Origin: Candidatus Dojkabacteria bacterium
Lineage (GTDB): Bacteria; Patescibacteriota; Dojkabacteria; J137
Assembly (NCBI GenBank): GCA_041750555.1
Contig: JBGSZB010000016.1
Span: forward strand, 19,725-83,724
Length of the DNA: 64,000 nucleotides
Reading direction: 5' to 3'
The notes under the pieces were generated by a model, which worked only from the letters and a program-made list of their open reading frames with translations, was not told the DNA's origin and ran no database searches. The stretch's first letter is position 1. Every line of letters begins with the position of its first letter. This document shows, piece by piece, positions 2,848-33,403 of this stretch. A program made the translations under genes and the position numbers.

Positions 2848-2960
2848 ATTTTATTGATAATAAATAAGATTAAATAATTATACATAATTATTAACTCATA
2901 AGTATGGACATCACCTTGAAAAAAATATATATTTGTTAGTAAGTATTTTAAAAGATAATT

Positions 2961-5900
2961 ATGCCAAAAGGACACATAAAGATTGGTAAGTATAAAATCC
3001 ATCATCATCATTTGTTGATGTTTGTTATTATATCCTCCCTTGTGATAATTGGTGTATTAGCTTCTAAAGGCGTGTTCTTATTAAACGCAGCAACTTCTCC
3101 TTGGAATCAAACAGATTGGAGTGCTGGAGTTGGAGGATCTACTACAGATCAATTTGCTTCATCTACAAATATAGATTTTACAAATTCCGGTGAAATAGCT
3201 CTTGAAAAATCAAGTGCATTAGATTGGTACAATACAAGTTGGTTACATAGAAGAAAGATAGTTTTTAATAATACTGATGCAAATATTGGTGTAACCTCTC
3301 AAGCACTTGTAGATTTTTCATTTCCTGTTAAATTTACTGATGGAGTTAATATAGATTATGCTAAAACACAAAATGCAGGTCAAGATATTAGATTTACTGA
3401 TTGTGATGGAACTACAGAACTAAGTTACCAAATAGAAAAGTGGGATGAACTGGGAGAATCATTAGTTTGGGTAAAAGTTCCACAAATTGATCAAAATTCA
3501 AGTACAGATTGTATATACACTTATTATAATAATGTTGCAGCTACAGATGGACAGGGAGTAACAAGTAATGTTTGGAGTGATAATTACAAGCTTGTATATC
3601 ATATGAATGAAGCAGAAACTGTCCAAGCTACAGATTCATCCCCTAAGGGCAATAATATTGCAGCAAGTGGAACTCCAAATCAACCTAAATCTGCTACAGG
3701 TCAACTATCATTGGGTAGACTTACAGGTAGAGACGAAACAACAGGGAACAACACAAGAGGATTCTCAAACTTTAATACTTTAGACTTTGATCTAGAGGGA
3801 AAAACTAGCTTTACTGTTTCTCTTTGGTTAAACAGACAGAATGACTTTAGTACAGCTACAGGAGAGATCATCTACTTCGCTGGTAATACTGGCGGTGGAA
3901 CATCAGGACAAAGAGATATTTATCTGTCATTAGTTAATGGTACTATGGGTTCACCAGGTATAAGTACTAATTACTTTGTACCTAAAAATACTTGGGTGAA
4001 GTTTACTATTAGTTATGATAGTCCTAATAACCTAATGTATTTGTATGGAAATAATGAGCTCGTATCTACAACTACATATTCAACTGTAAATTTTTCACCC
4101 CTTGGGTTTAACGTAAACAGACTAGGGGTAAGATTTAATGGAACACAAAGATTTGGTGCTTACCTTGATGAAGTAAGAATAATCGCTGAGCACAGAACAA
4201 GAGCTGAATTAAATGCAGAGTACTTGGCAGAGACCAGTGGATTTACATCATATCAAGCTGAAGTTGGTTACTATAAAACAAGCGCAACACTTTTATCTAA
4301 TATATTTGATACAGAGCAAAAGAGTGATTGGGGTAATATAACATATACAGTTTCAGGTAGCGGATTAACCCTTAAAGCAAGAAGTGGTGCACAAGCTAAC
4401 CTAAGTGATGCTGATAATTTTAATACTTGTGATGCTATAACATCAGGTACAGATTTAACAGATAATGATTGTGTATATGATTCTGATAGATATATACAAT
4501 ATCAGGTTGATTTAACTTCAGATGGAGGAACAACGCCTGTATTAACTGATGTATCACTAGTATTTAGTCCAAGTGAATTAACTGATCCAGATGTGAATGC
4601 AACAAGTGTAGAAATATCAGGTGTAAGTGAAGGCGATTGGATAAACTATGAACCTACATTTACTTGGGATGATGCAACAGATAATTTGGGAGGTAGTGGA
4701 ATTTTAGGATATTGTTTAGCATTAGAAGAGGCAACAATTGAAAGTCCAACGAACTTAGATCCAGAAATAACATCTGGAGTTTTAGGTAGCGATAATTTAA
4801 GATGGGGATTCTGTCCATATATAGTTACAACTACTTCCCTTGATGTATCTGCAGTTACAGGATTAGATTTAACATCAAATAAACAATACTATTTATCTGT
4901 AAGAGCTATAGATAATTCAGGTAATATTTTTGATAGTGGAGATGTAAATGATTACCGAAATCTCTTTTCATTTAAACATGATAACGTACCACCAACTAAT
5001 CCTACATATGTTAGTTTACCTGGTAACTTTGTATCTTCTAAAGATGTAACACTAACTTGGCCTGTAGCCTCAGGTGGAGCAGATGATGATGCATCACTTG
5101 TTGCAGGTCTTCAATACAAGATTGGAGATAGTGGAACATGGATGGGAGACTTACACCTAGGTACAGAAGATCTAACTGACTTATTAAATAATGATGGAAG
5201 TTATACAACTGATGTTACAACTGATTATCCTGTTATTTTAGATGGATTAAATAACTTATATTTAAGAACACTTGATAATGCAGGAAATATTAGTAGCAGT
5301 AACTTAAGTGCTGTTTTAAAAATAAATACTAATGCACCATCAGAACCACAAAATCTAACTGTTTCAGAAACACCTCGTACTGAGAATGATTATTCATTTT
5401 CATGGGAACCACCTGCTACATTTACTGGAAGTGTTAATGGAATTACATATTGTTATACCATTAATGAGTTACCTTCCCTTAGTACTTGTAACTATACATC
5501 TCCTGGAAGTTTAAGTTTAGCTAGCGATGCATACGCTAATCAACCAGGAAACAATGTTTTTCGTATTGCCGCAAGAGATGAGGCTTTTAATATTAATTAC
5601 AGTGTATTTACTTCAGTTAACTTTGAATATACAGGAGATGCTCCAGGAATGCCACAAAACTTAAGCATTGCTGATGTATCCATAAAAGATCAAAGTGATT
5701 GGAGATTAGTTGTTTCTTGGATTGAACCTAGTAGTTTAGGAGCAGGAGTATCTAACTACAAAGTATATAGAAGTACAACTGAAGCTACATGTTCTAGTAA
5801 TCCTGGTGCATTTAGCGAAGTTGGAACAACTACAAGTCCATCAAAAATATTTTCAGATACGGGTTTAACCCAACAAACTTACTATTACTGTGTTAAAGCT

Positions 5901-7196
5901 TGTGATAACGCTAATAACTGTGGGGCATATTCTTCAACTGTTAATCTATTACCTACAGGAAAGTTTACAGTTCCAGCGTCTCTAATAACAGAACCAAGTG
6001 TCTCAGCTGTTAGTACTCAAAAAGCAGTTATTAACTGGGTAACAGAGAGAGCATCTGATTCTAGAATTGAATACGGATTATCTAGTGGTCAATATTTTGA
6101 TGAAGAAGTTGGATCATCAGCTCAGGTAAGCGCACATACTGTAACACTAAACAATCTAACTGCAGGAACAACATATTACTTTAGAGCTAAATGGAGTGAT
6201 GAAGATGGTAATACAGGTATTAGCGAAGAAAAAACATTTGTAACTTCCCCACCACCTCAACTTATTGAAGTTAGTTCAAGTTCTGTAACTGTAAGTTCAG
6301 CACTTATTCAATTTACAAGTTCAAGTGCATATAAAGCAATAGTATTCTATGGCAAATCAACTAGTTTTGGATCAAGTCAGGAGATTAATATATCACCTAA
6401 CCAATCAACATATACAATATCTCTAACAGAGTTAGATGATGAAACTAAATATTACTATACAATATCTCTAATTGATTTAGAGGGAGTTACTTACCCTGGT
6501 GATACATATTCATTAACTACACTTGCAAAACCTAGAGTCGAAAATATAACAATTGAAGAACAAAAAGATACTGCTAGTCCAACCGTAAGTGTTGTATGGA
6601 CTACAAATGTTAATACAACTTCAATACTTGCATATAGGGAAGAAGGATCTAGTGATGATGAACTTCAAGTTATAAATATTGATCCAACAACAGAGCACTC
6701 ACTTGAAATTGTTGGATTAAAACCTACAACTAATTATGAATTAAGAGTTAGAGGTGTAGATGGATTTGGTAACATAGCAGAATCTAGTTTGTTTAAATTT
6801 ACAACTGCAACAGATAATAGAGCACCTTTAATATCAAATGTAATAGTAGAAAGTAATATAGTTAATAATTCAGCTAGTGGAGAAAGTAGAGCACAATTAA
6901 TAGTTTCTTGGGAGACTGATGAACCATCAACCAGTTTAGTTGCATTTGGAGAAGGTTCTATAGGAGCTTACACACAAACATCACAATCTGATTTAAACTT
7001 TAAACAAAAACATGTAATTATAATTAACGATTTAAATTTCTCAACTGTATATAGTTTACAAATACAAACTAGGGATCAAGCTGATAATGAGAGAAAGGGT
7101 AGTAACTTTATTGCTATTACTCCTAATAAAACAGAGAATGCCCTAGATTTAGTTATAATAAATCTTAGAGATATATTTGGTTTCTTAAATTTCTAG
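2961..7196 (+). CDS. giant cell-surface protein: N-terminal TM anchor, DUF2341, LamG/concanavalin-like lectin domain, array of fibronectin type III repeats
   Basis: 1411 aa. W-HRRKIVFNN...DIRFTD...VWVKVP...YTYYNN matches the DUF2341 signature. LamG_3-like end motif YLDEVRIIAEHRTRAELNAEY. Repeated PxxPQNLTV/PQNLSI FN3 starts; purple-acid-phosphatase-like FN3 (NWVTERASDSRIEYG). Confidence 0.8.
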   Translation: MPKGHIKIGKYKIHHHHLLMFVIISSLVIIGVLASKGVFLLNAATSPWNQTDWSAGVGGSTTDQFASSTNIDFTNSGEIALEKSSALDWYNTSWLHRRKIVFNNTDANIGVTSQALVDFSFPVKFTDGVNIDYAKTQNAGQDIRFTDCDGTTELSYQIEKWDELGESLVWVKVPQIDQNSSTDCIYTYYNNVAATDGQGVTSNVWSDNYKLVYHMNEAETVQATDSSPKGNNIAASGTPNQPKSATGQLSLGRLTGRDETTGNNTRGFSNFNTLDFDLEGKTSFTVSLWLNRQNDFSTATGEIIYFAGNTGGGTSGQRDIYLSLVNGTMGSPGISTNYFVPKNTWVKFTISYDSPNNLMYLYGNNELVSTTTYSTVNFSPLGFNVNRLGVRFNGTQRFGAYLDEVRIIAEHRTRAELNAEYLAETSGFTSYQAEVGYYKTSATLLSNIFDTEQKSDWGNITYTVSGSGLTLKARSGAQANLSDADNFNTCDAITSGTDLTDNDCVYDSDRYIQYQVDLTSDGGTTPVLTDVSLVFSPSELTDPDVNATSVEISGVSEGDWINYEPTFTWDDATDNLGGSGILGYCLALEEATIESPTNLDPEITSGVLGSDNLRWGFCPYIVTTTSLDVSAVTGLDLTSNKQYYLSVRAIDNSGNIFDSGDVNDYRNLFSFKHDNVPPTNPTYVSLPGNFVSSKDVTLTWPVASGGADDDASLVAGLQYKIGDSGTWMGDLHLGTEDLTDLLNNDGSYTTDVTTDYPVILDGLNNLYLRTLDNAGNISSSNLSAVLKINTNAPSEPQNLTVSETPRTENDYSFSWEPPATFTGSVNGITYCYTINELPSLSTCNYTSPGSLSLASDAYANQPGNNVFRIAARDEAFNINYSVFTSVNFEYTGDAPGMPQNLSIADVSIKDQSDWRLVVSWIEPSSLGAGVSNYKVYRSTTEATCSSNPGAFSEVGTTTSPSKIFSDTGLTQQTYYYCVKACDNANNCGAYSSTVNLLPTGKFTVPASLITEPSVSAVSTQKAVINWVTERASDSRIEYGLSSGQYFDEEVGSSAQVSAHTVTLNNLTAGTTYYFRAKWSDEDGNTGISEEKTFVTSPPPQLIEVSSSSVTVSSALIQFTSSSAYKAIVFYGKSTSFGSSQEINISPNQSTYTISLTELDDETKYYYTISLIDLEGVTYPGDTYSLTTLAKPRVENITIEEQKDTASPTVSVVWTTNVNTTSILAYREEGSSDDELQVINIDPTTEHSLEIVGLKPTTNYELRVRGVDGFGNIAESSLFKFTTATDNRAPLISNVIVESNIVNNSASGESRAQLIVSWETDEPSTSLVAFGEGSIGAYTQTSQSDLNFKQKHVIIINDLNFSTVYSLQIQTRDQADNERKGSNFIAITPNKTENALDLVIINLRDIFGFLNF

Positions 7197-7200
7197 ATAT

Positions 7201-7914
7201 ATGAAAGATAAAGAATATACTCTTAAATCATCAATAATTTCTGATTTAGATGGTAAATATGGTTATCCAATAGATGAGGATGGGGTATATAAAGTAAGTG
7301 TAACTGCTTCAGGATATAAGCCTTATGAAAAGTTTTTAAACTTATCTCGTGGTAATGAATTAATTGAAGAAGTTGCCCTTACTAAAGTTAATGATATATC
7401 AAGTGTTGCTAATGATCTAGATAAAATTAAAAAATATCAAATGTTAGAGGCTGTTAAGATTATTAACGTCTTAGTATTTCTTTTAATAACTCTAGGCTTT
7501 TTATTTAATTTATACAATGTAGCAAGTAGTCCAACATTATTTAATTTAATAGTATTTGTAATATATTCATTAATAATGATGGTTAATATATATCTATTTA
7601 TTAAAAAGAATAAATCTACTTCTAAAGCTAGAATTATTGATCAGAATAAAAACCCAGTATCTTCAGCAGTTGTTAAAGTATATAGCGATAATAAACAGGT
7701 TGGAGTATATGTAACAAATGGTAGTGGTGAATTTAAAGCTAAACTACCATCAGGAGAGTATAAGATAATGATTAGTAAAACTGGAATTGTATTGGGAGAT
7801 AGAATGTATAAAGTATTTGTTAACCGCGATGGCTATATCGTTGACGATGTAGTAATAGAAACTAAATTCCCTAACTTTGATAAAGATAACTTGGTAGTTA
7901 ACCCTTTCTCTTAA
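7201..7914 (+). CDS. membrane protein with two carboxypeptidase-regulatory-like (CarboxypepD_reg) beta-sandwich domains
   Basis: Starts 5 nt after the giant protein stop. GVYKVSVTASGYKP and SGEYKIMISKTG motifs flank two TM helices. Confidence 0.6.
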   Translation: MKDKEYTLKSSIISDLDGKYGYPIDEDGVYKVSVTASGYKPYEKFLNLSRGNELIEEVALTKVNDISSVANDLDKIKKYQMLEAVKIINVLVFLLITLGFLFNLYNVASSPTLFNLIVFVIYSLIMMVNIYLFIKKNKSTSKARIIDQNKNPVSSAVVKVYSDNKQVGVYVTNGSGEFKAKLPSGEYKIMISKTGIVLGDRMYKVFVNRDGYIVDDVVIETKFPNFDKDNLVVNPFS

Positions 7915-8632
7915 GATAACTTGTATAAACCCCTGAGAATATAAAGGCTGTAATAATAGCTACACAAATTAATGCAGTGTAAAGAATTACTAATACATCT
8001 GAGAATTTAACTGCTATTCCTACACTTGCCCATACAATTACCAGGGCATACGCGTAATCTCTAGACTTATACATTGCATAAATAGCTAGAAGCATTGCTA
8101 CAACTATTAATAATGCACTCCAGACTGATCCACTTAAAACTAAAGATTCTATTCCAAAGTAGTTTAAAAATACTGTTACATTAGCAACTGTTGCTACTGT
8201 AATCCAACCTAAATATATTGAGAAGGGTATTTTTACAAAGATATTAAAGTTTCTAGTTGTTGATTTTAAACTATATATACTTGTATATATTTTAATTAAT
8301 ACTAGAAGTAGAGCAAGCATTATAGGTAGAGTTGATGGTATAAAATTATAGTGCCAAAGAATAATCCATAAGCTATTTAATAGACCAGCTAATACTACAT
8401 ACCAAGAAATCTCTTTAAACACTTTATAGTTATTTCTTAACTGATATATTGCAAAAGCTATTAAACCTAAATATATTACTCCCCAGATAGAAAACACATA
8501 ACCTGCGGGAACAAAAAATACACTAAATGAATCTGAAACTTCTGCTGTAGTTACTCCGTTATACGGAATAATATTTGCAAGTAGGTTAATAACTATAGTC
8601 ACAACAACTGATAGGGCAACCACAATTTTCAT
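7898..8632 (-). CDS. TspO/MBR-like tryptophan-rich multi-pass membrane protein
   Basis: FFVPAGYVFSIWGVIYLGLIAFAIY resembles the TspO core; 5-6 TM helices; longer than canonical TspO. Confidence 0.4.
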   Translation of the reverse strand: MKIVVALSVVVTIVINLLANIIPYNGVTTAEVSDSFSVFFVPAGYVFSIWGVIYLGLIAFAIYQLRNNYKVFKEISWYVVLAGLLNSLWIILWHYNFIPSTLPIMLALLLVLIKIYTSIYSLKSTTRNFNIFVKIPFSIYLGWITVATVANVTVFLNYFGIESLVLSGSVWSALLIVVAMLLAIYAMYKSRDYAYALVIVWASVGIAVKFSDVLVILYTALICVAIITAFIFSGVYTSYLKRKG

Positions 8633-8727
8633 ATTTTTTATATAACTACATTAGTCTAAAACTATTTAATAAAGAATTCCAGTATATTTAATATATTTAT
8701 ATATATCTAATTAAATGTACTTAATTT

Positions 8728-8736
8728 TGATATAAT
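8728..8736 (+). promoter_or_regulatory. extended -10 promoter (TGaTATAAT) for tRNA-Arg
   Basis: TGATATAAT ends 7 nt before tRNA position 1. The 13-mer TATAATCACATAT recurs at 34250. Confidence 0.35.
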
Positions 8737-8743
8737 CACATAT

Positions 8744-8818
8744 GCGCCTGTAGCCTAATGGATAGGGCACTTGTCTTCGGAACAAGGTTATGTGGGGGTT
8801 CGACTCCCTCCAGGCGTA
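8744..8818 (+). tRNA. tRNA-Arg (anticodon TCG)
   Basis: Cloverleaf read by eye: acceptor GCGCCTG/CAGGCGT (G1-U72); D-arm GCCTAATGGATAGGGC; anticodon stem CTTGT/ACAAG with loop CTTCGGA; T-arm GGGGGTTCGACTCCCTC; no encoded CCA. Confidence 0.85.
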
Positions 8819-8874
8819 AATACTTCTTGTAAATTAAGAGTTCATATATTACAATTCCAAGCTTAAATATAGTT

Positions 8875-10209
8875 ATGAAGGACAATAAATTATCAGGTGA
8901 ACCTACGTCAAGACCAGTAGAAATGGTTTTTGTAAGTGATGGCGGATTACTAGGTAATGAAATTACGTACTTAGCTCAATTTGGAGATATAAATATAATC
9001 TCTGAAGAATTTATGCTTAATGAAGTTAGAGCAGCAATTTTTTCTGAGCTTATTAAAACTTGGTCTCTTTTAAGATTTAGAGGAATAACCCCATACTTTA
9101 GTATATTTGATGCATACAGTATTGCATCTACCTTAGAAGAGGAAAAACTAATGGAATATGTAAGAGATGTTGATGATATACGGTCGGCAAGGTTAGCGAA
9201 TGGCCTAAGAGAGGAAAGCGCAAATAGCGATTTAGATATGTTGGCAGGAGATATCTGTAAAAGAATATTTTTTATTGTTGATAAGATTGACCCATATACA
9301 GGAGAAATTACCCAAGTAGTTCAATTAAAAAAGACAGATATGTTTAAAGCTAGAGATTTAGTTAAAGCTAAAGAAAGAACATTAAAAAAAGCTAAGGGTG
9401 GAATGCAGGACTATGACCTTGAATTAATAGGAAGGATAAAAAAGTTAAGTACTATTCTAGATAAACTTCCTCATATACTACTAAATACAATAATACTTCC
9501 ATTAACTCAAGAGGAAAGTGACGCTATTAAAAATATAGGGAGATCAATTCAACTACATTATGATACATTGAATTGTTCTCGAGGGATTGTAAAGAATTTT
9601 GAAGAAGCTTCAATTGAATTTGATACTAATGTTTTAGAATGGATAAGAATATCAAAAGGTAGAATTGAAAGAATAAATGAAATATTAGCAGGTTTACCTG
9701 TGGGAAACACACTAGTTTCATCAGGTTCTTCTGCAATATACCAATTTGCAGAGTATATAAAAGTAGAAAATGTAAATTTTGGCGTTAAGCATGCAAAAGT
9801 ATATGCCCCATTTCAATATTTAGTTAACCTACAAATATCAATAGATAGAGGTGATATGTACGAGAACGTTAATATTATTAAAAACAGGCTATATCTTTCC
9901 CACTATCTATATGGAGCTTTAATTGCTGAACATAGTTTAGGTAACCAAGACGCTGCAGAAATATCTATAGCTTTAATAAATTCACTATCAGATGAGCAAA
10001 TTAATAAATTAATAAGTGAGTTTAATAATGATAAACAGAGAAGAGGATTAACTAAGTTAATGGTTACGCTTTTTGGAAATGATTATGATATAGGTTCAAG
10101 AAGTATATTAAAAAGAACCTGGGGTAATAACTTTGGTCATATACCTGAGGTGATTATTAATACAGAAGTAGTTGAGAATGCAAGAGATATTAATACTGCT
10201 GAAGCTTAA
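8875..10209 (+). CDS. hypothetical protein, no recognisable domain
   Basis: 444 aa uninterrupted ORF directly downstream of tRNA-Arg; soluble; no motif recognised. Confidence 0.5.
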   Translation: MKDNKLSGEPTSRPVEMVFVSDGGLLGNEITYLAQFGDINIISEEFMLNEVRAAIFSELIKTWSLLRFRGITPYFSIFDAYSIASTLEEEKLMEYVRDVDDIRSARLANGLREESANSDLDMLAGDICKRIFFIVDKIDPYTGEITQVVQLKKTDMFKARDLVKAKERTLKKAKGGMQDYDLELIGRIKKLSTILDKLPHILLNTIILPLTQEESDAIKNIGRSIQLHYDTLNCSRGIVKNFEEASIEFDTNVLEWIRISKGRIERINEILAGLPVGNTLVSSGSSAIYQFAEYIKVENVNFGVKHAKVYAPFQYLVNLQISIDRGDMYENVNIIKNRLYLSHYLYGALIAEHSLGNQDAAEISIALINSLSDEQINKLISEFNNDKQRRGLTKLMVTLFGNDYDIGSRSILKRTWGNNFGHIPEVIINTEVVENARDINTAEA

Positions 10210-10646
10210 TCTTTAGAGTATCTTCTATTAAGTAATGTTACTACAATAATAGCTAGAAATGCTAAGAAAGATAGTAATGGTATTGTTACAAAACCTAATA
10301 CTTCAAAATCAATTTGAGTACATGAAATACCATCTCCACAAGCTAAGAATTGAGTTCCAATAGAAAACTTTTGAACAATATAATGATATCCTGAAAATAA
10401 TAGTCCTGGAATACAAAGAGCAATAATATATTTAAAATTTAATTTATCTTTAAAAGATATAGCTACACTACTTAGAATAAATAGTGAATACATAAATATT
10501 CTTTGATACCAACATAAGTTACAGGGAGGTAATTTAACAACTTCACTAAAGTATAAACTTCCAAAAGTAGATACAAATGTTAAAAGGAATATAATATTTA
10601 GGCTGTTATCTCCTAAAAACTTTAGTAATTTATTAATAATCTTCAC
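10206..10646 (-). CDS. DsbB/BdbC-like disulfide bond formation protein
   Basis: PPCNLCWYQRIFMY (CxxC followed by YQR) in TM1-2 loop region; second Cys pair CGDGISC; 4 TM helices; 146 aa. Confidence 0.55.
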   Translation of the reverse strand: MKIINKLLKFLGDNSLNIIFLLTFVSTFGSLYFSEVVKLPPCNLCWYQRIFMYSLFILSSVAISFKDKLNFKYIIALCIPGLLFSGYHYIVQKFSIGTQFLACGDGISCTQIDFEVLGFVTIPLLSFLAFLAIIVVTLLNRRYSKD

Positions 10647-10654
10647 AAGGTAAA

Positions 10655-11980
10655 TTATGCCACACTTTTTAAATTTTCTCTAACATATTCCTTAGATTCT
10701 TCTACACCTGGTTGATTAAATACATTAACTTCAAGTAAGTTACCTAAAATCAAGGTTACTAATTCAAAAAAATAAAATAATTGGCCTAAATAGTATGCAT
10801 TAACCTCAACAATTTCTAATGTAATATTAGGTATTTCATTATTATCCATTGAAGTTTGTGTACCTCTATACTCTAAATTTAAAATACTGTTAAATGATTT
10901 ATTACTTAAGAAACTTAATTCATTAATATCATTATTATCTATAGCAATATCCAAAGTATTAGAGGCATTAGTAACATTAATAAATGTAATAACTTTATTC
11001 TTAATACCATCAATATATAATTGTAATTGAGAATGTTGATCAAGGGGACCTAGGTTAGATATTGGTGTAATACCCTGAGTTACATTGTTATTATCCACTT
11101 TACCAAGAGATTCAGAGATTAACTGTACATACCATTTAGAAAAGTATGTTAAATATTTAGAATAAGGCATTAAAACATTAATATTTTTATTTTTTAAATA
11201 TTCTGAATAAATAAAACTAACATACTTAGTTACTTCATCTAAATTATTATCTAAATCAATAGCTCCCTTAATTAAACTATTAACATCTAAGTTTAATAAT
11301 AGAGATGGTATTAAACCAACACTAGATAATACTGAAAATCTACCTCCTAATTCTTTAGGAATATCAATAGTTATTACATTATGTTTTAAAGAGATATCCC
11401 TTAAAATATTAGAGCTATTAGCATTTGTATTAATTTCTTTTTCTTCAACTTCATTTGTTATAAATACAAAATGTTCTTTAATATTTAAATTTAATTTCTT
11501 AACTTTAGTGTAAAAGAATAAAAAGCTACTTAATGTTTCTATAGTATTTCCCGATTTAGATAAAACTAGGAATAAGGTTTTTGATAAATCTAAAACATCT
11601 AATAATTCATTTAAATATTTAGGTTCTGTAGTGTCTCCTGCAAAATATACTTTTTTAAAGTTAGTTAAGTTTTTATCATTACTTAAGCTATTAACGTTAC
11701 TTGAACTTACATTATCCAATTCATTAAAGTTAGAGTGAGTTAGGGCATTAAATATTGCTCTAAAACCTAAATCACTACCTCCTACACCTAGAATTACTAA
11801 AGTATCTTTATTTTTTTTAACATTATCTAGTTTACTAAATTCTAATAGTACCTTATCTAATTGATATATCTCCTTAATAAACACAGGTGGATTATTTATT
11901 AACTCTTTCTTAACTTGCTTAATTTTGTTTAATAACTCTAAGTCAATCTTATCTACAATCTTGGAGGTTACTTTAATCAT
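10655..11980 (-). CDS. pgi: glucose-6-phosphate isomerase (short bacterial/archaeal type)
   Basis: LVILGVGGSDLGFRA motif (GxGGS-LG); 441 aa. Confidence 0.75.
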   Translation of the reverse strand: MIKVTSKIVDKIDLELLNKIKQVKKELINNPPVFIKEIYQLDKVLLEFSKLDNVKKNKDTLVILGVGGSDLGFRAIFNALTHSNFNELDNVSSSNVNSLSNDKNLTNFKKVYFAGDTTEPKYLNELLDVLDLSKTLFLVLSKSGNTIETLSSFLFFYTKVKKLNLNIKEHFVFITNEVEEKEINTNANSSNILRDISLKHNVITIDIPKELGGRFSVLSSVGLIPSLLLNLDVNSLIKGAIDLDNNLDEVTKYVSFIYSEYLKNKNINVLMPYSKYLTYFSKWYVQLISESLGKVDNNNVTQGITPISNLGPLDQHSQLQLYIDGIKNKVITFINVTNASNTLDIAIDNNDINELSFLSNKSFNSILNLEYRGTQTSMDNNEIPNITLEIVEVNAYYLGQLFYFFELVTLILGNLLEVNVFNQPGVEESKEYVRENLKSVA

Positions 11981-12073
11981 AAATGAATATTTAATAGATA
12001 TTAATATATTACTTTAAATAAAGTATCTTTAATATATAATAATACAGAGATTATTAATTGTTAAAAAATATAT

Positions 12074-13093
12074 ATGACATCAAGATTAGCTATAAATGGA
12101 TTTGGAAGAATAGGTAGATTGTTTTTAAGAAGTTTAATTGAAAAAAACTATTTAAATAATAGTGTTGAAGTTGTAGCTGTTAATGATTTAACAGATGCTT
12201 TTAATTTAGCTTATCTTTTAAAGTATGATAGTGTTCATGGTGTAATGAAATCTGATGTTAAGGCTCTTGATGAATCAACTTTAATGATAGATGGTAAAGA
12301 GATTAAGGTATTAAATTTAAAGGTTAAACCAACTGAGTTACCTTGGAGAGATTTAAATATTGATGTAGTAGTAGAATCCACCGGAGTTTTTGAGAAGAAG
12401 GAAGATGCTAGTGGACATATTAGGGCTGGAGCTAAGAAGGTAATAATTTCAGCTCCAAGTGATAGTGATGTTAATACATATTTAGTGGGTGTTAATTCTG
12501 ATAAATACTTAGGAGAAGATATTATCTCTAATGCAAGTTGTACTACTAACTGCATTGCTCCAATGGTTTATGCTTTAATTAGAGAGGGTATTGGATTAGA
12601 GGAAGGGTTAATGAATACTATGCATGCATATACTGCTACTCAATCTTTAACTGATTCTCCATCATCTAAAGACTTTAGAAGAGGAAGAAGTGCCGGTTTA
12701 AATATTGTTCCATCAAGTACAGGAGCTGCAAAAATGATTGGAGAGATATTACCTGAAGTTAAAGGTAAATTAACTGGTATGTCTTTTAGAGTTCCTGTTG
12801 CTTGTGGTTCTGTAATTGATTTAACTTTTAAACCAACAAGAGAAACCTCTCTTGAGGAGATTAATTCTTTAATGAAGAAAGCTTCTGAAACTTATCTTAA
12901 AGGAGTAATGGAGTATACAACTGATCCTATTGTATCTAGTGATATTATTCATAATTCTCATTCATGTGTTTATGATTCTACTAGTGGTATACAATTAAAT
13001 TCAAGATTTTTTAAAATTGTTGGTTGGTATGATAACGAATGGGGTTACTCTAATAGGTTAGTGGATTTGTTAGGGAGTGTACTAACTAAGTAG
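12074..13093 (+). CDS. gap: glyceraldehyde-3-phosphate dehydrogenase, type I
   Basis: INGFGRIGR NAD-binding motif and catalytic SCTTNCIAP. Confidence 0.95.
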   Translation: MTSRLAINGFGRIGRLFLRSLIEKNYLNNSVEVVAVNDLTDAFNLAYLLKYDSVHGVMKSDVKALDESTLMIDGKEIKVLNLKVKPTELPWRDLNIDVVVESTGVFEKKEDASGHIRAGAKKVIISAPSDSDVNTYLVGVNSDKYLGEDIISNASCTTNCIAPMVYALIREGIGLEEGLMNTMHAYTATQSLTDSPSSKDFRRGRSAGLNIVPSSTGAAKMIGEILPEVKGKLTGMSFRVPVACGSVIDLTFKPTRETSLEEINSLMKKASETYLKGVMEYTTDPIVSSDIIHNSHSCVYDSTSGIQLNSRFFKIVGWYDNEWGYSNRLVDLLGSVLTK

Positions 13094-13250
13094 TAAATTT
13101 ATCTTTTACCATTTGCGTTTTTTACTATAGCTTTATACCTTTCTAAGAATTTTTCTGTTCTAGGAACTTTTCCTCCAGAATTTTTAATTCTATTTATTAA
13201 TACTTCAAGTCTTTGGAGTAGTTTAATATTTATTAAAATTTCTATAGAAC

Positions 13251-13790
13251 TTACATTAAAACAGAACCTTGACCACTAGGTGGATTGTTTCTGAATTTTC
13301 TAGATCTCATCTGCTCTACTGTTTCAAAATCAATATTTATACCTGTAAAATATATTGTATTTAATCTTTCTAATCTTACTAACCAGTGCATTAATATATT
13401 TCTATGACTAATACCTTCAACATCTACCATGTATGATGGCAATTCCACTTTTAATATAGGTAAGTTAGTATATACATGTTTAAGAAATATTGTTAAGTTA
13501 ATTAATGTTTCATACATTTCTCTACTAATATCTGGAACAGCAAGTGAACCTGAAACTGGGAATAACAGATTTAAAAAGCTATCAATTACATAAGTTTCTT
13601 CTAATGACATCTCTACAATTACACTGTCCTTAAAGCCTGAGATAACTAAGCTTTTATTTGGAAGTGTAATAAATGAATTAGCATATTTTTGGTAAAGAGT
13701 TTGAACTAAAGGCATGTATCTTTCAATCGAATTTATACATTCAAGCAATCTAATTCTATCTAAATCTTCAACAGAAGTAGTTCTTTCCAT
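13251..13790 (-). CDS. hypothetical protein
   Basis: 179 aa ORF convergent with gap; basic C-terminal tail; no motif recognised. Confidence 0.4.
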   Translation of the reverse strand: MERTTSVEDLDRIRLLECINSIERYMPLVQTLYQKYANSFITLPNKSLVISGFKDSVIVEMSLEETYVIDSFLNLLFPVSGSLAVPDISREMYETLINLTIFLKHVYTNLPILKVELPSYMVDVEGISHRNILMHWLVRLERLNTIYFTGINIDFETVEQMRSRKFRNNPPSGQGSVLM

Positions 13791-13896
13791 TTACAAAAAA
13801 TTAATAAGTTATATTAACACACTAAATTATTTTATAGGTTAGTTTAAAAATGGGATTGTGATATATAATCAAATATACATTTTATTATTAATATAT

Positions 13897-14157
13897 ATGT
13901 CTTCAATTTCAAAGGTAGAGGTGATTCCTACTAAACAATCAAAAGAAAGCGTAAGAGATTATGTGAAAACGCTAACTTTACCTCTTCTATTACTTCTAGC
14001 AACAATGCTAGGATTTGAAAGAACGGTAAATGAAAAGGTTTCAGAATTAACTGAAGAAGTTAAAAATAACTTAGCTGAAAGTATCGTAGCTAGAATTCAA
14101 CCACAAGACCTTCCAGGTATTCAAGAACAGTTGAGGGAATTTAACAACGAAGGCTAA
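13897..14157 (+). CDS. small hypothetical protein with one TM helix
   Basis: Short ORF upstream of pgk; the ORF track starts at GTG 13858, and ATG 13897 is an alternative. Confidence 0.3.
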   Translation: MSSISKVEVIPTKQSKESVRDYVKTLTLPLLLLLATMLGFERTVNEKVSELTEEVKNNLAESIVARIQPQDLPGIQEQLREFNNEG

Positions 14158-14193
14158 ACTATCATTCATAATTAATTCTGCTAAAATATCCTT

Positions 14194-15399
14194 ATGGAAT
14201 TAAATAACTATTCATATACAAATATTAACTTAACTAAAGAATTAAATATTGTAGTTAGATCATGTTTAAATGTAACACAAGATAGTGATGGTAACGTATT
14301 AGATAATTCTAGAATAATTGAATCTTCAAAACTAATTAAAGAGTTAGGGGGTAGGGTTAATAGGGTAGTAATACTAGCTCACTTAGGAAGACCGAGTGAA
14401 TATTCTAAAGAATTTAGTTTTGTAAATGTTGTTAAAGAGTTAGAGGGTGAAGTAAATAAAGGAGTTAATGATAAATTTAGTATTACTTTAGTTAATACTT
14501 TAGAAGAATTAGAAAACTTAGTTAATCAAAATGCTAGGGGAATATATTTACTAGAAAATATTAGGTTTAATAATGATGAAGAGAGTAGTGATTTAAATAT
14601 TAGAAGTGAATTTGGTAAAAGATTATCTAAGTTAGGTGATATATTCATTAATGATTCATTTGCAGACTATAGAGAGAGTGCATCTAACTATGATATTGCT
14701 AAAAATATGCAGTCATATTTAGGCCCTGTATTTATTAATGAAATAAATAATTTAAATAAATTAAAGAATCCAAGTACTCCATACATTGCAATATTAGGTG
14801 GTGCTAAATTAAGTGAGAAGATAGATATTTTAAATTCACTACTTGATACTTGTGATAAAGTTTTAATAGGTGGAGCAATGAGCTATACAATATTAAAAGC
14901 TAAGGGTATTAATGTAGGGAACTCTTTAATTGAAGAAGATAAAATAGATGTTGCAGTAGAGATATTAAATAAATATTCAGATAAGTTAGTATTACCCCTT
15001 GATCATTTAGTGAGTAATGAATTTAATGAAGAGAGTCCCTATCAATATATTAATGAAGTTAACATTAGTGAAAATAGAGTAGCAATAGATATTGGGTGGG
15101 AAACTATTAAGTTATTTAGGGATGAAATATTAAAAGCTAATACAATCCTTTGGAATGGTCCAATGGGTGTATTTGAATGGGAACACTCAAGTGTAGGAAC
15201 TGTAGAAATAGCTAAAGCTATAGTTAACAATGTAAATGCATACAAGGTAGTTGGTGGAGGAGATAGTATTACAGCTCTCAATAAATTTAATATATTAGGA
15301 TTTGATCATATATCAACAGGAGGAGGAGCTATGATTAAATATTTATCAGGTGATGAGTTTAAAACATTAGAGGTTATACTCAATCAGCATAACAAGTAA
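14194..15399 (+). CDS. pgk: phosphoglycerate kinase
   Basis: RVVILAHLGRP; GGAKLSEKI; GGGDS; C-terminal GGGAM motif. Confidence 0.9.
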   Translation: MELNNYSYTNINLTKELNIVVRSCLNVTQDSDGNVLDNSRIIESSKLIKELGGRVNRVVILAHLGRPSEYSKEFSFVNVVKELEGEVNKGVNDKFSITLVNTLEELENLVNQNARGIYLLENIRFNNDEESSDLNIRSEFGKRLSKLGDIFINDSFADYRESASNYDIAKNMQSYLGPVFINEINNLNKLKNPSTPYIAILGGAKLSEKIDILNSLLDTCDKVLIGGAMSYTILKAKGINVGNSLIEEDKIDVAVEILNKYSDKLVLPLDHLVSNEFNEESPYQYINEVNISENRVAIDIGWETIKLFRDEILKANTILWNGPMGVFEWEHSSVGTVEIAKAIVNNVNAYKVVGGGDSITALNKFNILGFDHISTGGGAMIKYLSGDEFKTLEVILNQHNK

Positions 15400-15400
15400 A

Positions 15401-15943
15401 TTACCTCCTATCCCTTAACAACATACTTAAGAATAGATATCCAAAACTAAATAGTATTAGATAAAATATTAAATTACTAACTTGAGAATATATATTGTTA
15501 TTGTAGTAAAACGATACTAAGTTACATCTAATTTCACAAAAGAAAGAATCATAGTTATACATTCTTTGTAAAGATTTCATTACAATACTTAATATTACAT
15601 TAGAATAAAATAGAGGTAATATTAAACCTAAGAATGAATTTAATGTAATAATTACTGGTAAATGATTTAAGTTACTGTAATAACTTCTAGCAATAAATCT
15701 AAAGTAATTAATAATTACTAATAAATTTAAGAATATTAATATTAAACCAAATATACTAACAAATGCTTTAGTAAAATCTCCTCCAGTTTTAGTTAATCCA
15801 TTAAAAAAAAGTATAGATAACATAAAGAAGGATATAGATAAAAAGCTTCTAAACATTATAGAGTGATCTAACATTTTTGAATTAAATCTACGTGCTTTAT
15901 TTGGAAGTGATTTAATATTAGAAGTTAATTTATCAAGAAACAT
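15401..15943 (-). CDS. hypothetical multi-pass membrane protein
   Basis: 180 aa, 4-5 hydrophobic helices. Confidence 0.4.
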   Translation of the reverse strand: MFLDKLTSNIKSLPNKARRFNSKMLDHSIMFRSFLSISFFMLSILFFNGLTKTGGDFTKAFVSIFGLILIFLNLLVIINYFRFIARSYYSNLNHLPVIITLNSFLGLILPLFYSNVILSIVMKSLQRMYNYDSFFCEIRCNLVSFYYNNNIYSQVSNLIFYLILFSFGYLFLSMLLRDRR

Positions 15944-15979
15944 TTAAATTAGATAATAAATATATTAATTTATTATATA

Positions 15980-17065
15980 CTACACACCCATAAATATACC
16001 TAACTTTTTTGCAGTTTGATAAACATGAGAATTTATTGTTACCTTTTTAAGAATATTAATAGCTTCTGTAATTGGAACTTCAACAATCTCATTATCTTTT
16101 AAAGACACCATATACCCGAATCGTAAATCTAGTATTAAATCAATAGCCCTAATACCATATGATTTAGCTAATATTCTATCCATTGAATCAGGAGAACCAC
16201 CTCTTTGTAAATGTCCTAAGACTAAGTTTCTTAAATCAAATTGATTAGGAGCTCTTTTATTTATTTCATTAATTATTTCACTTGAGATACCACCTAATTT
16301 AATTTCACCTTTTTTAATATTTTTATCACTAATTACTTCACCATTAATTGCTTTAGCTCCCTCACTTACAACTATTATTGAATAATCTCTACCTATATGT
16401 TTTTTCCATTTTAAAAATCTTACTAATGCATTGTAATCAAAATCAAATTCAGGAAGTAGTATTACATCAGCACCACTAGCTAGCCCAGAATGTAGTGCTA
16501 TCCAACCAGAATATCTACCCATAGTTTCAATTACCATAACTCTTTCATGACTCTCCGCACTTGTTCTTACTTTATCAATTGCATCAACGACAATATTTAC
16601 AGCACTACTAAATCCAAAGCTTTGATCAGTATTTGTAACATCATTATCTATTGTTTTTGGAATACCAATAATATTTATACCTCTATCCATAAACTGTAAT
16701 GCACCACTTAATGTTCCATCTCCACCTATTAATATTATTCCATCTAAATTAAGTCTATGATAATTTTTAACAACCTTATCAATTAAGTCTTTATCTATCT
16801 TTCTTTTTTTACCTTCATCTCCTCTTTTAGAACCAAATAACCCTCTGTTAGAGGTTTTTAAAATTGTTCCACCAAGACTTCCTATACCTTTAACGCTACT
16901 TGAGTTTAATTCTATGTATTCATTATCATATACTCCTTCCCAACTTCTTAAAAATCCAAAGAACTTAATATGTCTCTTAACTCCATAAGTTACACATGCT
17001 TCTATTACAGCATTTGTACCTTGTGCATCTCCTCCTCCTGTTACTATTCCTATTCTTTTATACAT
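15980..17065 (-). CDS. pfkA: 6-phosphofructokinase (PfkA family; ATP versus PPi dependence not decided)
   Basis: IGIVTGGGDAQGTNA and IILIGGDGTLSGA motifs. Confidence 0.9.
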   Translation of the reverse strand: MYKRIGIVTGGGDAQGTNAVIEACVTYGVKRHIKFFGFLRSWEGVYDNEYIELNSSSVKGIGSLGGTILKTSNRGLFGSKRGDEGKKRKIDKDLIDKVVKNYHRLNLDGIILIGGDGTLSGALQFMDRGINIIGIPKTIDNDVTNTDQSFGFSSAVNIVVDAIDKVRTSAESHERVMVIETMGRYSGWIALHSGLASGADVILLPEFDFDYNALVRFLKWKKHIGRDYSIIVVSEGAKAINGEVISDKNIKKGEIKLGGISSEIINEINKRAPNQFDLRNLVLGHLQRGGSPDSMDRILAKSYGIRAIDLILDLRFGYMVSLKDNEIVEVPITEAINILKKVTINSHVYQTAKKLGIFMGV

Positions 17066-17209
17066 AAATACCTAGATATTTAATTAATATATTTCTTACT
17101 TAGTTTACAATTATTAAAAAAGTTTTTGAAGTAATATGTTTTATATTTAATATATATTACTTTAAACTCAAGTTTATTGATAAAATATTAATAATTAATA
17201 TTAAAAGTT

Positions 17210-18268
17210 ATGGATAAATACACTGAATTCTTAAAAGAATTAGATTCAACTAGATATATATTAAATGAGCCATTATCTAAACACTCTACTGTTAGAATTG
17301 GAGGACCTGCTGATATTTGGTATGAAGCTCTAACTAATGATGACTTTATACAAACTATTAAACTAGCTAGAGAGTACAATGTCCCAGTAACTATACTTGG
17401 TAGAGGAGCTAATGTATTAATTGGAGATTTGGGTATTAGGGGATTAGTTATTAAAAACTCTAGTAAAAATATTAAGATATCAAGTGAAGAGAGTGTTAGT
17501 GAAACTAAAGAGTTAGAAGATGAAGTTCAAGCTAGATGGGATTCTGCTACAGAAGAGGAGGGTGCTAGATCAATGTATGAATTTAAAGATTTAGATTATT
17601 CAGAAGAAGAGTATCCAAGAGTTGATGTAACAATAGATAGTGGTGTAGATATGCCTTTTGCAATTAATTATTTAATTCAAAATGGTGTTACAGGATTACA
17701 ATGGTATTCTAGAATTCCAGGAAGTTTAGGTGGTTGGATTTACAATAATGTTCATGGTGGAACACACTTTATCCATGAAGTTATTAAAGATGTTACTGTT
17801 TTAACTCCTGATAACAAGATTGTTGTATTAGGTAAACAAGATTTAGGCTTAGATTATGATTTATCTAGGTTTCATACATCTAACGAGGTAATTATTAAAG
17901 CAACACTACTGTTATACAAAGGTGATACACAAAAAGCTAGATATGTAGCTATGGAGTGGGCTAAGAGAAAAAGTATCCAACCATCAATTTCTATTGGTTG
18001 TATATTTAAAAATATCTCTAATGAGTCTAAAGAGAAGTTTAATTATCCAACTACTAGTGTTGGATACATTGTAGAGCATGTACTTAATATGAAGGGTTTT
18101 CATATTGGAGATGCATATATTTCTCCTAATCATCATAACTTTATTGAGAATAAAGGTAATGCAACAGCTAAAGATTACCTAGCTGTTATTAATGAAATAG
18201 TTAATAGAACTAAAGAGAAACTAGGTATAGATTTAGAATTAGAGATATTTAAGTTAGGGGAGTTTTAA
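17210..18268 (+). CDS. murB: UDP-N-acetylenolpyruvoylglucosamine reductase
   Basis: FAD-binding PCMH domain (VRIGGPADIW...ILGRGANVLI); carries a ~50 aa acidic insertion. Confidence 0.8.
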   Translation: MDKYTEFLKELDSTRYILNEPLSKHSTVRIGGPADIWYEALTNDDFIQTIKLAREYNVPVTILGRGANVLIGDLGIRGLVIKNSSKNIKISSEESVSETKELEDEVQARWDSATEEEGARSMYEFKDLDYSEEEYPRVDVTIDSGVDMPFAINYLIQNGVTGLQWYSRIPGSLGGWIYNNVHGGTHFIHEVIKDVTVLTPDNKIVVLGKQDLGLDYDLSRFHTSNEVIIKATLLLYKGDTQKARYVAMEWAKRKSIQPSISIGCIFKNISNESKEKFNYPTTSVGYIVEHVLNMKGFHIGDAYISPNHHNFIENKGNATAKDYLAVINEIVNRTKEKLGIDLELEIFKLGEF

Positions 18269-19596
18269 TCTTTAAAAAGACCTATTTTAAATATAACTGA
18301 ACCTTCTGAAGTACCTCGTTTGGATGACCAGAAGGTTTTATTATCATTAACTTTAAAGTATAGATTTAAGGAACTTATTATGGATTCAAGATCTTCTGCT
18401 ATCTTCGCATGAAGTTTGTAGATACTGGTTTCATCAGTAATACTTAAAGCTGTTTTTTGTTTAATAGTTATCTCAATTGATTCATTGGCAAATAGACTTT
18501 CAAGGTTTTGCTCTATTGCCCCAATAATCTCATCTTTATATAACATTCTACCATGATCTTCTTCATTAAAACTTCTCTTCCATAACTTAAAGTTATCTCT
18601 GAATTTATCTAAAGGTGTTTTTTTACTTTCAATGTATTCAGCTTTAATATCATCTAAATTTTTCTTTAATGAGGTACTTTCGCTTAACTCTTTAAGCGTT
18701 TGAACTAATCTCAAAAATGACTCTACTAGACTCTCTCTTTTACTCGTATCCTTTGTTAAGTCTGTATTTTGAAAGGTTGTAAATAGTTCGGCTAAATCTC
18801 TATATGAGTCTACAAATCCCCTTAAATCCGTTCCTAGCTTGTCTTCAGGGAGTGAATCAACTGACATTAAGGAATCCAAAACATCTGTAACTGATTTTGT
18901 ATCATAAGATTTCTGGTTACCTCCTATAATTTTTAATTCACCACCTAAAAATATAAGACGAGGTTCTATATCTTGGAATTCAACTTTAAAGTAGGCTTTA
19001 TTTTCAGAATCCAAACCATAACTTTTAAATATTAATCCAATAAACTTACTTAGAATTGTTGGATCAATAACAGTAGGCATCTCAATAGGAGGTTCCACAG
19101 GAGTATCCAATACATCTATGGGTTGATTATCTCCTCTAGGGTTCTCTGCAAGAAGCAAAGGTACTTCTTGATTCTGATGCAGAGGAGCTATAGCTTCATC
19201 AACAGTTTCAAGTGGTAAAAATAACTTATCAATACTATCAAAAGTTTTATGGACAAGATATTCTAGATTCCTCTCATATTCATTATATGCTTGATTATTT
19301 TTTAATTTATCTAAGTAATAAAGTATATTACTTAAATCAAAAAAGATTTCATTATACTCATCTTTTTTAATATCTGCCGACTTTCTCTTTAATTCAAAAA
19401 AACGAATAAGATCTTTAAGCAACGATTCTACATCATGATATTTTCTTTCATCTTTTATTAAGTAATATATCGGATATTCTGGAGAATCTTTAGGGAAATA
19501 ATGGCCAAGTAATTTTGGCTTCAATTTGCTATAAATTAATTTAGCCTCATCTTCTCCCATATTGTTATCAACTACTTTTTCAATAGATCCTTGCAT
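18265..19596 (-). CDS. hypothetical protein
   Basis: 443 aa ORF overlapping the murB stop by 4 nt, convergent; no motif recognised. Confidence 0.5.
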   Translation of the reverse strand: MQGSIEKVVDNNMGEDEAKLIYSKLKPKLLGHYFPKDSPEYPIYYLIKDERKYHDVESLLKDLIRFFELKRKSADIKKDEYNEIFFDLSNILYYLDKLKNNQAYNEYERNLEYLVHKTFDSIDKLFLPLETVDEAIAPLHQNQEVPLLLAENPRGDNQPIDVLDTPVEPPIEMPTVIDPTILSKFIGLIFKSYGLDSENKAYFKVEFQDIEPRLIFLGGELKIIGGNQKSYDTKSVTDVLDSLMSVDSLPEDKLGTDLRGFVDSYRDLAELFTTFQNTDLTKDTSKRESLVESFLRLVQTLKELSESTSLKKNLDDIKAEYIESKKTPLDKFRDNFKLWKRSFNEEDHGRMLYKDEIIGAIEQNLESLFANESIEITIKQKTALSITDETSIYKLHAKIAEDLESIISSLNLYFKVNDNKTFWSSKRGTSEGSVIFKIGLFKD

Positions 19597-33313: not shown

Positions 33314-33403
33314 GGAGGGGTACCCAAGTGGCTCAAGGGGAGGGTTTGCTAAACCCTTAGTACGGAGTAATCCGTAGCGCAGGTTCGAATCCTGTTCCCT
33401 CCG
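33314..33403 (+). tRNA. tRNA-Ser (anticodon GCT)
   Basis: Acceptor GGAGGGG/TCCCTCC; anticodon stem GGGTT/AACCC with loop TTGCTAA; long variable arm (TTAGTACGGAGTAATCCGTAGC); T-arm GCAGGTTCGAATCCTGT; no encoded CCA. Confidence 0.85.

Follow-up and report, generated by a model that had tools for sequence, protein, structure and literature searches.

The locus described here lies in a stretch of 64,000 nucleotides (nt), called the window below, from a Candidatus Dojkabacteria bacterium (contig JBGSZB010000016.1, positions 19,725 to 83,724), and consists of a gene for a protein of 1411 amino acids (aa), which we call the giant, and a second open reading frame, ORF2, that follows it directly. Patescibacteria, or bacteria of the Candidate Phyla Radiation (CPR), live attached to other microbes, and the molecules of this attachment are, to our knowledge, largely unknown beyond type IV pili. 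In this study, we examine the anatomy of the two proteins, the family of the giant, the genes that accompany it in related genomes, and the divergence of the locus from that of a close relative. The giant is an ordinary though well-preserved member of a CPR surface family built of DUF2341, LamG, and FN3 domains, and we propose that it is a binding fibre with a variable head on a constant stalk and tail. An original prediction, made from the letters of the window alone, had taken the two genes for a surface operon, a description that is supported for the giant and not for ORF2. The features of the two genes are as follows.

2961..7196, plus strand: gene of the giant, 1411 aa (open reading frame call)
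2997..3098, plus strand: N-terminal hydrophobic helix, residues 13-46 (hydropathy; AlphaFold2 helix at residues 15-40)
3240..3575, plus strand: DUF2341 domain, compact all-beta, residues 94-205 (PF10102)
3576..4256, plus strand: Laminin_G_3 or concanavalin-A-like lectin domain (LamG), residues 206-432 (PF13385)
4257..4580, plus strand: extra beta-sandwich that is not FN3, residues 433-540 (AlphaFold2, predicted local distance difference test score, pLDDT, above 90; no Pfam match)
4581..5960, plus strand: four divergent FN3/Ig-like beta-sandwiches, residues 541-1000 (AlphaFold2, Foldseek)
5961..7130, plus strand: four clear FN3 repeats of the purple-acid-phosphatase-N type, residues 1001-1390 (Pfam, a hidden Markov model (HMM) built here, AlphaFold2)
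7131..7193, plus strand: C-terminal tail, ...ITPNKTENALDLVIINLRDIFGFLNF, with a short amphipathic helix (AlphaFold2 helix at residues ~1395-1405)
7201..7914, plus strand: ORF2, 237 aa (open reading frame call, Pfam, hydropathy)
within ORF2, plus strand: truncated CarboxypepD_reg domain, residues 1-62, and a second CarboxypepD_reg domain, residues 140-237 (Pfam)
7438-7605, plus strand: transmembrane (TM) hairpin of ORF2, two helices, residues ~80-135 (hydropathy)

Both reading frames lie where they had been predicted, on the same strand, and the spacer between them is 4 nt (TAG-ATAT-ATG) rather than the 5 nt first counted. The domains that had been named from the sequence were judged against the curated gathering scores of Pfam, and all of them exceed these. 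In the giant, DUF2341 (PF10102) scores 53.0 bits against a cut-off of 23.4 (E 4.8e-14, residues 140-200), Laminin_G_3 (PF13385) 49.8 bits against 27.6 (residues 276-417), fn3 (PF00041) 62.3 against 25, and the FN3-type Pur_ac_phosph_N (PF16656) 69.7 against 30; in ORF2, CarboxypepD_reg (PF13620) reaches 50.0 bits against 32.3 in two stretches.

The giant contains one hydrophobic segment, the N-terminal one, which had been recognized as a signal or anchor and which is present in all orthologs. It is followed by the motif (V/I/L)-x-A↓ATSPW (the arrow marks a possible cleavage point), likewise kept across orthologs, and is a putative uncleaved anchor or a putative cleavable Sec signal peptide. 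An AlphaFold2 model of residues 1-560, computed from a 32-sequence alignment (mean pLDDT 77), places a small beta element after this helix and folds residues ~96-190 into the compact all-beta DUF2341 domain with a pLDDT above 90. The signature residues by which DUF2341 had been called, W94, RRKI (97-100), DIRF (142-145), VWVKVP (169-174), and YYNN (188-191), are all present and invariant in an alignment of 10 orthologs. A profile search of the PDB gave no sequence-detectable homolog for the DUF2341 region, and its fold class is not narrowed past “compact all-beta”, Foldseek on the multidomain model being dominated by LamG. The LamG jelly roll itself is modeled with lower, only moderate, confidence. 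Its profile matches in the PDB are 5hon and 4qvs, and Foldseek against the PDB places it with the Hc-N domain of clostridial neurotoxins, the lectin domain of trans-sialidase, pentraxin, and the pilin PilC (7oa8). Since LamG is only 25% identical between orthologs, no conserved ligand site is definable.

Behind the extra beta-sandwich, which has a conserved Cys490/Cys504 pair, a model of residues 535-1411 (mean pLDDT 80.6) shows eight consecutive beta-sandwiches over residues 541-1390. This is the low end of the eight to ten FN3 repeats that had been predicted, and only four of the eight are strong by sequence: the last four (1006-1390) are matched by the HMM built here with E 1e-23 to 1e-30 per repeat, and residues 541-1000 match only a short C-terminal FN3 motif of it, together with a profile match to a titin FN3 domain. 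In Foldseek, the array superposes end to end on the FN3/Ig arrays of titin, contactin, ROS1, gp130, and LAR. The 12 cysteines of the giant form six intradomain pairs, four of them invariant or nearly so, and a DsbB gene lies ~3 kb from the giant gene, at 10206-10646 (Pfam DsbB on the ortholog in L085, a syntenic sister contig). The single N-terminal hydrophobic segment, the intradomain cysteine pairs, and the nearby DsbB gene fit an extracytoplasmic giant; these features, with the lectin head and the FN3 stalk, make it look like an exported surface protein, and to this extent the original prediction was sound.

Pfam and related domain searches detected no catalytic domain in the giant and no SLH or other wall-binding domain. 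LPXTG, PEP, and PGF motifs, a C-terminal TM segment, and a basic tail are all absent from it, the protein ending in ...FGFLNF, so that sorting by a sortase or exosortase was rejected. Membership in a pilus, as a pilin or as a tip protein, was rejected as well, because the giant lacks a class III (prepilin) signal of the G-F/M-T-L-x-E type and no pilus genes occur in the window or beside the orthologs; a functional analogy is kept. The giant is thus a non-enzymatic protein of secreted type that contains disulfides; a stalk of eight FN3-like domains bears its lectin-type head.

Among 5.8 billion proteins searched, the giant has, besides its identical NCBI entry, about ten full-length relatives, 34-44% identical at 99-100% query coverage and 1395-1444 aa long. 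Ten orthologs are collinear from the post-signal motif ATSPWxQTDWSGG to the tail TPKATxNALDLVIxNLxEAFGFL, with a constant count of domains. A scan of the GTDB species genomes places full-length members in Candidatus Dojkabacteria, WWE3, the Microgenomates group, and WS2, as well as in some metagenome-assembled genomes with evidently automatic labels. The CTP synthase of the window points to Dojkabacteria too, its closest named proteins being those of Dojkabacteria/WS6, at ~74% identity. Variation in the number of repeats, which had been suggested as a check on the locus, was looked for: Tandem Repeats Finder found no DNA tandem repeats in 2900-8000, and this, together with the constant architecture of the orthologs, indicates that the FN3 array is ancient and its number fixed. 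A contingency locus working by gain and loss of repeats was rejected on the same evidence.

Within this fixed architecture, the parts of the protein differ in how fast they change. Between orthologs, DUF2341 is the most conserved part, with a mean pairwise identity of 62%, and LamG is the least conserved, with a mean of 25%. The paralogs that stand in an array in one genome share 96-100% identity in the tail and 74-89% in the stalk, as against 14-63% in DUF2341 and 10-31% in LamG. At the level of identities, this is the classical pattern of a constant shaft with a variable, putatively receptor-binding, head, and the near-identical stalks beside very different heads suggest that gene conversion acts on the stalk while the head diversifies. 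Arrays of up to four giant paralogs are seen in L012 (1-14287), L015 (7100-20000), and L016 (2914-14251), and in the first copy of L012 the DUF2341 region is only 14-19% identical to those of copies 2 and 3.

The genes around the giants were surveyed by clustering the open reading frames of 16 related loci and the first 20 kb of the window. The usual arrangement is one to four tandem giant paralogs followed on the same strand by a MacB-type ATP-binding cassette (ABC) transporter, composed of ABC_tran, MacB_PCD, and FtsX in split or fused form, and the clustering found no other conserved neighbor. Such a transporter adjoins the giant in 11 of the 15 informative loci that bear the tail (L003/L008, L004, L005, L006, L007, L010, L011, L012, L015, L016, and L091), and in the last of these the tail-bearing giant, P0039, lacks DUF2341 and comes right after the transporter. 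The same transporter is adjacent in none of ~65 loci with DUF2341-LamG proteins that have no tail. The presence of the linkage in tail-bearing loci and its absence from tail-less ones indicate that it follows the stalk and tail, not the head.

The tail has the pattern (I/L)TP(K/R)...(A/V)(L/I)(D/N)(L/I)(V/I)..N(L/F)...FG(F/W)(L/M), which the window giant fits with E 6e-18 in a tail HMM. It is conserved in all orthologs and is found as well at the end of giants whose heads are unrelated (Kelch, RCC1, or FN3 only), and the last 45 aa of the window giant are identical in L085. The window itself departs from the other tail-bearing FN3-array giants in having no adjacent transporter: a tblastn search with five MacB-type transporters from related loci (E 1e-3) found none in its 64 kb. 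Our literature searches brought up neither the tail motif nor the MacB linkage nor a module of the ORF2 type, and nothing relevant on Patescibacteria with LamG or FN3 or on CPR bacteria with MacB. It is tempting to see in the tail a new, sortase-independent handling signal, common to CPR FN3-array giants with unrelated heads (DUF2341-LamG, Kelch, RCC1) in bacteria without an outer membrane; the MacB-type transporter would dock, anchor, release, or actuate the fibres, and the window lineage would have become uncoupled from it, with ORF2 as a possible substitute. We regard this full scheme as unlikely.

ORF2 had been described as two CarboxypepD_reg domains around TM helices. Both domains are matched and the hairpin between them is present, but the first domain is short by ~24 N-terminal residues. 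A word-indexed search gave a single close homolog, P0081 (68% identity), which stands in L085 directly after the C-terminus of a giant that is 82% identical to the window giant over 335 aa; at ~15 other orthologous giant loci, a homolog of ORF2 is absent. An exhaustive HMMER search with ORF2 of 1.84 billion representatives gave 669 matches. In 123 of these representatives the whole module (sandwich, two-helix hairpin, sandwich) is matched, with E down to 1e-33, and in 83 of the 123 it forms the C-terminal end of a larger protein, mostly of 1-2.7 thousand and often of 1.6-2.7 thousand aa. These larger proteins begin with a signal peptide, or with an N-terminal receiver domain and then a TM helix; their bodies contain beta-helix or Big domains, and none has DUF2341. 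One of their genes has RuBisCO and an IF-2B-like gene nearby, a setting typical of CPR genomes. An extra TM helix precedes the hairpin by 60-260 residues in 101 of the 123. ORF2 matches the module over its full length, but the upstream TM helix and ~24 residues of the first domain are missing and it is not fused to a large protein. By its predicted make-up, ORF2 corresponds to the “TM - CarboxypepD_reg - TM hairpin - CarboxypepD_reg” module of CPR giants, in a copy that stands by itself and is truncated at the N-terminus.

Two sets of relatives deserve separate mention. P0082 (L086, 3-972), the closest distant relative of ORF2, is annotated as a stand-alone protein of 239 aa and is really the 3' portion of a larger gene that a frameshift has split; the upstream reading frame contains, at its end, a TM helix and the initial strands of the first CarboxypepD_reg domain. 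Eight CPR-type giants of 1.9-2.5 thousand aa (P0088, P0090, P0096, P0097, P0100, P0105, P0116, and P0117) have a response-regulator receiver domain and then a TM helix at the start and the ORF2-like module at the end; with cytoplasmic domains at either end, this would be an unusual layout for a transmembrane protein.

The prediction that ORF2 is itself a surface protein was not supported. ORF2 has no signal peptide, and its hairpin is preceded by KIKK and followed by KKNKSTSKAR, the loop between the helices being neutral and 10 residues long. The flanks of the hairpin carry net charges of +2.4 and +1.1 across the 123 module proteins, and in L086 the upstream TM helix is followed by RRKNKND and then by the first strands of domain 1. 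Given these K/R-rich flanks, the positive-inside rule predicts both sandwiches of ORF2 to be cytoplasmic; ORF2 then probably exposes only the loop of ~10 residues outside the cell and is not a surface component.

ORF2 could be a relic in decay, left when a rearrangement cut the 3' end off a former giant gene, and have no present function, as its start ~24 residues inside the first CarboxypepD_reg domain, the lack of the upstream TM helix found in 101 of 123 relatives, and the comparable history of P0082 would suggest. We consider this very unlikely. The reading frame is intact and 237 aa long in both genomes despite a synonymous divergence (dS) of ~0.93 between the window and L085, the ratio of nonsynonymous to synonymous divergence (dN/dS) is 0.26, and the truncated N-terminal domain, at 74% identity, lies above the protein average of 68%. 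Nothing of the missing TM helix or strands is found upstream in any frame, and the frame of ORF2 is closed 13 nt before its ATG; a longer ORF2 hidden upstream, as in P0082, was rejected on this ground. Translation of the giant into ORF2 by a programmed +1 frameshift or by readthrough was likewise rejected: ORF2 is in the +1 frame, which is closed by a TAA at 7186-7188, the giant ends in TTC-TAG without a site for re-pairing, and the spacer in L085 is 56 nt long with stops in all frames. ORF2 is a maintained gene, which is possibly a membrane partner of the giant in trans and possibly unrelated to it.

The first of these options is taken furthest if giant and ORF2 form a dedicated two-component surface apparatus, in which ORF2, exposed at the surface or placed in the membrane, would hold or present the adhesin. 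The 4-nt spacing on one strand, the adjacency kept in L085, and the purifying selection on both genes are consistent with this, as is the homology of ORF2 to the C-terminal membrane-anchor module of other giants, through which a giant without a C-terminal TM segment could use ORF2 in trans. The wider family argues in the other direction. The pair occurs in two closely related genomes only, whereas ~15 ortholog loci lack ORF2 and usually have the MacB-type transporter as partner; the tail of the giant is conserved in lineages without ORF2; the giants that carry the module in cis have beta-helix, Big, or receiver domains and never DUF2341; and the domains of ORF2 are predicted to be cytoplasmic, with ~10 residues exposed. 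We find such an apparatus improbable.

ORF2 and the end of the giant gene lie in a block that differs from its surroundings in the comparison with L085. By blastn, the window is 76% identical to L085 over 6188-8821, which comprises the 3' end of the giant gene, ORF2, and the gene of a 244-aa membrane protein, and 91% identical over 10212-19088. L085 ends inside the giant gene, and the left boundary of the block is thus outside the comparison; at the right boundary stands a tRNA gene. The further features of the block are these.

7898..8632, minus strand: multi-pass membrane protein of 244 aa, convergent with ORF2, whose last 17 nt it overlaps
8743..8819, plus strand: tRNA-Arg(TCG) (ARAGORN, Rfam), also present in L085, at the boundary between 76% and 91% identity set by the blastn breakpoints

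The C-terminus of the giant, ORF2, and the 244-aa gene have a dS of 0.93-1.03 and a dN/dS of 0.13-0.26, the giant C-terminus standing at 0.13; six flanking genes have a dS of 0.17-0.39. The 244-aa protein is 80% identical to its L085 copy at the aa level (dS 1.03), and none of Pfam, PADLOC, and PHROG gives a match for it. We read the block as a divergent allele, old or recombined, that lies beside tRNA-Arg and whose proteins are under purifying selection. The locus had been called accessory and rapidly evolving, and the block is indeed far more divergent than its flanks, but the dN/dS values and the stable architecture do not fit rapid evolution of the proteins as a whole; it is the head that varies. 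Directly 3' of tRNA-Arg(TCG), the window has an insertion of 1.39 kb relative to L085 (8822-10211), which encodes an orphan reading frame of 444 aa (8875-10209, plus strand) without Pfam, PADLOC, or PHROG match and is possibly the remnant of an integrated element. For ORF2, the 244-aa gene, and the 444-aa orphan, an origin in defence systems or phages was rejected, since none of them has a PADLOC or PHROG match.

On the strength of the anatomy, the family, the synteny, the pattern of variability, and the divergence described above, we propose that the giant is a Sec-exported surface binding fibre, a candidate adhesin in which LamG provides the specificity, the stalk and tail contact machinery of the cell, and the head is distal if the signal is cleaved; we assign this reading a probability of about 0.6. 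The giant would pass via Sec to the cell surface, where the stalk of eight FN3-like domains, roughly 30 nm long if extended, would carry the N-terminal DUF2341-LamG head. Signal cleavage at (V/I/L)-x-A↓ATSPW would leave that head distal, free to bind a ligand (glycan or protein) carried by a partner cell, a host cell, or a polymer, with LamG setting the specificity. The conserved stalk and tail would meet the cell's own machinery, and the MacB-type transporter, which belongs to a mechanotransmission type, would where present be the likely partner that docks, handles, or actuates the tail. From this picture we infer that the giant may serve host attachment.

Several points weigh against this reading. 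Should the N-terminal helix be retained as an anchor, the head would lie close to the membrane, and the picture of a distal head would be wrong. The giant has no nearby MacB-type transporter in L001, in L090, and in the 64 kb of the window, and the transporter partner may be elsewhere in the genome or dispensable. Cytoplasmic CarboxypepD_reg (transthyretin-like) domains are unusual for the fold, and the topology given to ORF2 follows from rules only. The contrast in divergence comes from a single genome pair, and it could be inflated by a stronger constraint on codon usage in the flanking glycolytic genes.

The same anatomy also allows a role that is not adhesion to a host. The giant could be a structural component of the envelope, S-layer-like or forming a sheath, or a scavenger that captures polysaccharide, with the MacB-type transporter then handling the substrate. 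Conservation over the full length across deep CPR lineages and purifying selection are more like a core part of the envelope than a contingency adhesin, LamG has profile matches to an S-layer-domain protein (4qvs) and to the CBM-like domain of an arabinanase (5hon), and LamG_3 and FN3 are common in glycan-binding exoproteins. The giant nevertheless has neither an SLH or other wall-binding domain nor a catalytic domain as far as the domain searches reached, a variable head on a constant stalk and tandem arrays of paralogs are typical of receptor-binding repertoires, and we know of no MacB-family (type VII ABC) transporter that is an importer. An envelope or scavenging role therefore seems doubtful to us, and we keep the surface binding fibre as the preferred reading.

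The window is AT-rich, with a G+C content of 24-34%, and the neighborhood of the locus is one of housekeeping genes: PGI, GAPDH, PGK, PFK, aldolase, LDH/MDH, and iPGM, together with CTP synthase, RNR, a Mur ligase, UvrC, and DNA ligase. Neither pilus genes nor sortase genes are found in the 64 kb. A second large surface-type protein, of 1069 aa, is encoded at 38000-41209 (plus strand), with CHB_HEX_C_1/Fn3_assoc and a C-terminal Laminin_G_3 domain and without the C-terminal tail motif. It lies downstream of tRNA-Ser (33314-33403) and of genes for DUF4268, DUF3800, and GDSL-lipase proteins, and its region may be another variable one. A protein of 295 aa at 28274-29161 (minus strand) has weak matches to EF-hand and dockerin-type calcium-binding repeats near its C-terminus.

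These results delimit a conserved and tractable family of candidate attachment fibres of ~1400 aa, often in tandem, with a constant stalk and tail and a diversifying DUF2341-LamG head. For experiments, they offer as handles the head domains, the tail, and, as a candidate partner, the MacB-type transporter. They also correct the logic of annotation, in that ORF2 is a detached anchor module predicted to face the cytoplasm and not a second surface protein. The newer aspects, namely the shared tail with its MacB co-occurrence, the detached anchor module, and the block bounded by a tRNA, concern the wider family more than the window.

Parts of the giant have counterparts in several known systems. 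The PilC pilin of Streptococcus sanguinis (7oa8), the neurotoxin Hc-N domain, and the lectin domain of trans-sialidase share the LamG fold (Foldseek E ~1e-5 to 1e-6) and are, like it, binding modules on a carrier; the likeness is at the level of fold only, with 9-16% identity, and in the window giant an FN3 stalk takes the place of the pilin or toxin as carrier. The MacB/FtsX-type ABC transporters include FtsEX-EnvC/PcsB, LolCDE, and MacAB, and this type VII family works by mechanotransmission to periplasmic or extracellular partners. The ABC_tran and MacB_PCD/FtsX genes after giants in 11 of 15 loci resemble these systems, but the window contains none, the coupling to the giant is read from synteny only, and we know of no MacB system that handles FN3 fibres of 1400 aa. 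Sortase-dependent (LPXTG) adhesins of the MSCRAMM type in monoderms likewise combine a signal peptide, a ligand-binding head, and a repetitive Ig/FN3-like stalk; unlike them, the giant has no LPXTG-type motif, C-terminal TM segment, or basic tail.

DUF2341 itself also occurs in archaea. Annotation makes the domain a predicted part of type IV pili-like systems, and it is present in archaeal Epd pilus loci (PMC4858521), and the Epd proteins (PF10102; COG “MJ1470”) resemble the giant in carrying DUF2341 in a large extracytoplasmic predicted adhesin (PMC4858521). In Methanococcus maripaludis, transposon insertions in the DUF2341 gene MMJJ_08210 abolish natural transformation (PMC10133366), and it is the only DUF2341 protein known to have a phenotype; fusions of DUF2341 to ExbB/TolQ-like motor subunits have also been described (PMC12505986). 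The loci of the window and of its orthologs differ from the archaeal ones in having no pilus genes, and the giant has no prepilin signal, consists of LamG, eight FN3 domains, and a tail besides DUF2341, and has a MacB-type transporter as its neighbor in the family. Giant DUF2341/FN3 proteins of Patescibacteria have likewise been proposed as possible adhesins (PMC11809585). These DUF2341/FhaB/FN3 giants, noted in the description of Patescibacterium danicum, come from the same phylum and combine DUF2341 with FN3, and a part in adhesion or host interaction has been proposed for them without experiments (PMC11809585); they exceed 4000 aa and lack full-length homologs, whereas the window giant, at 1.4 thousand aa, belongs to a family of collinear orthologs and ends in a defined tail.

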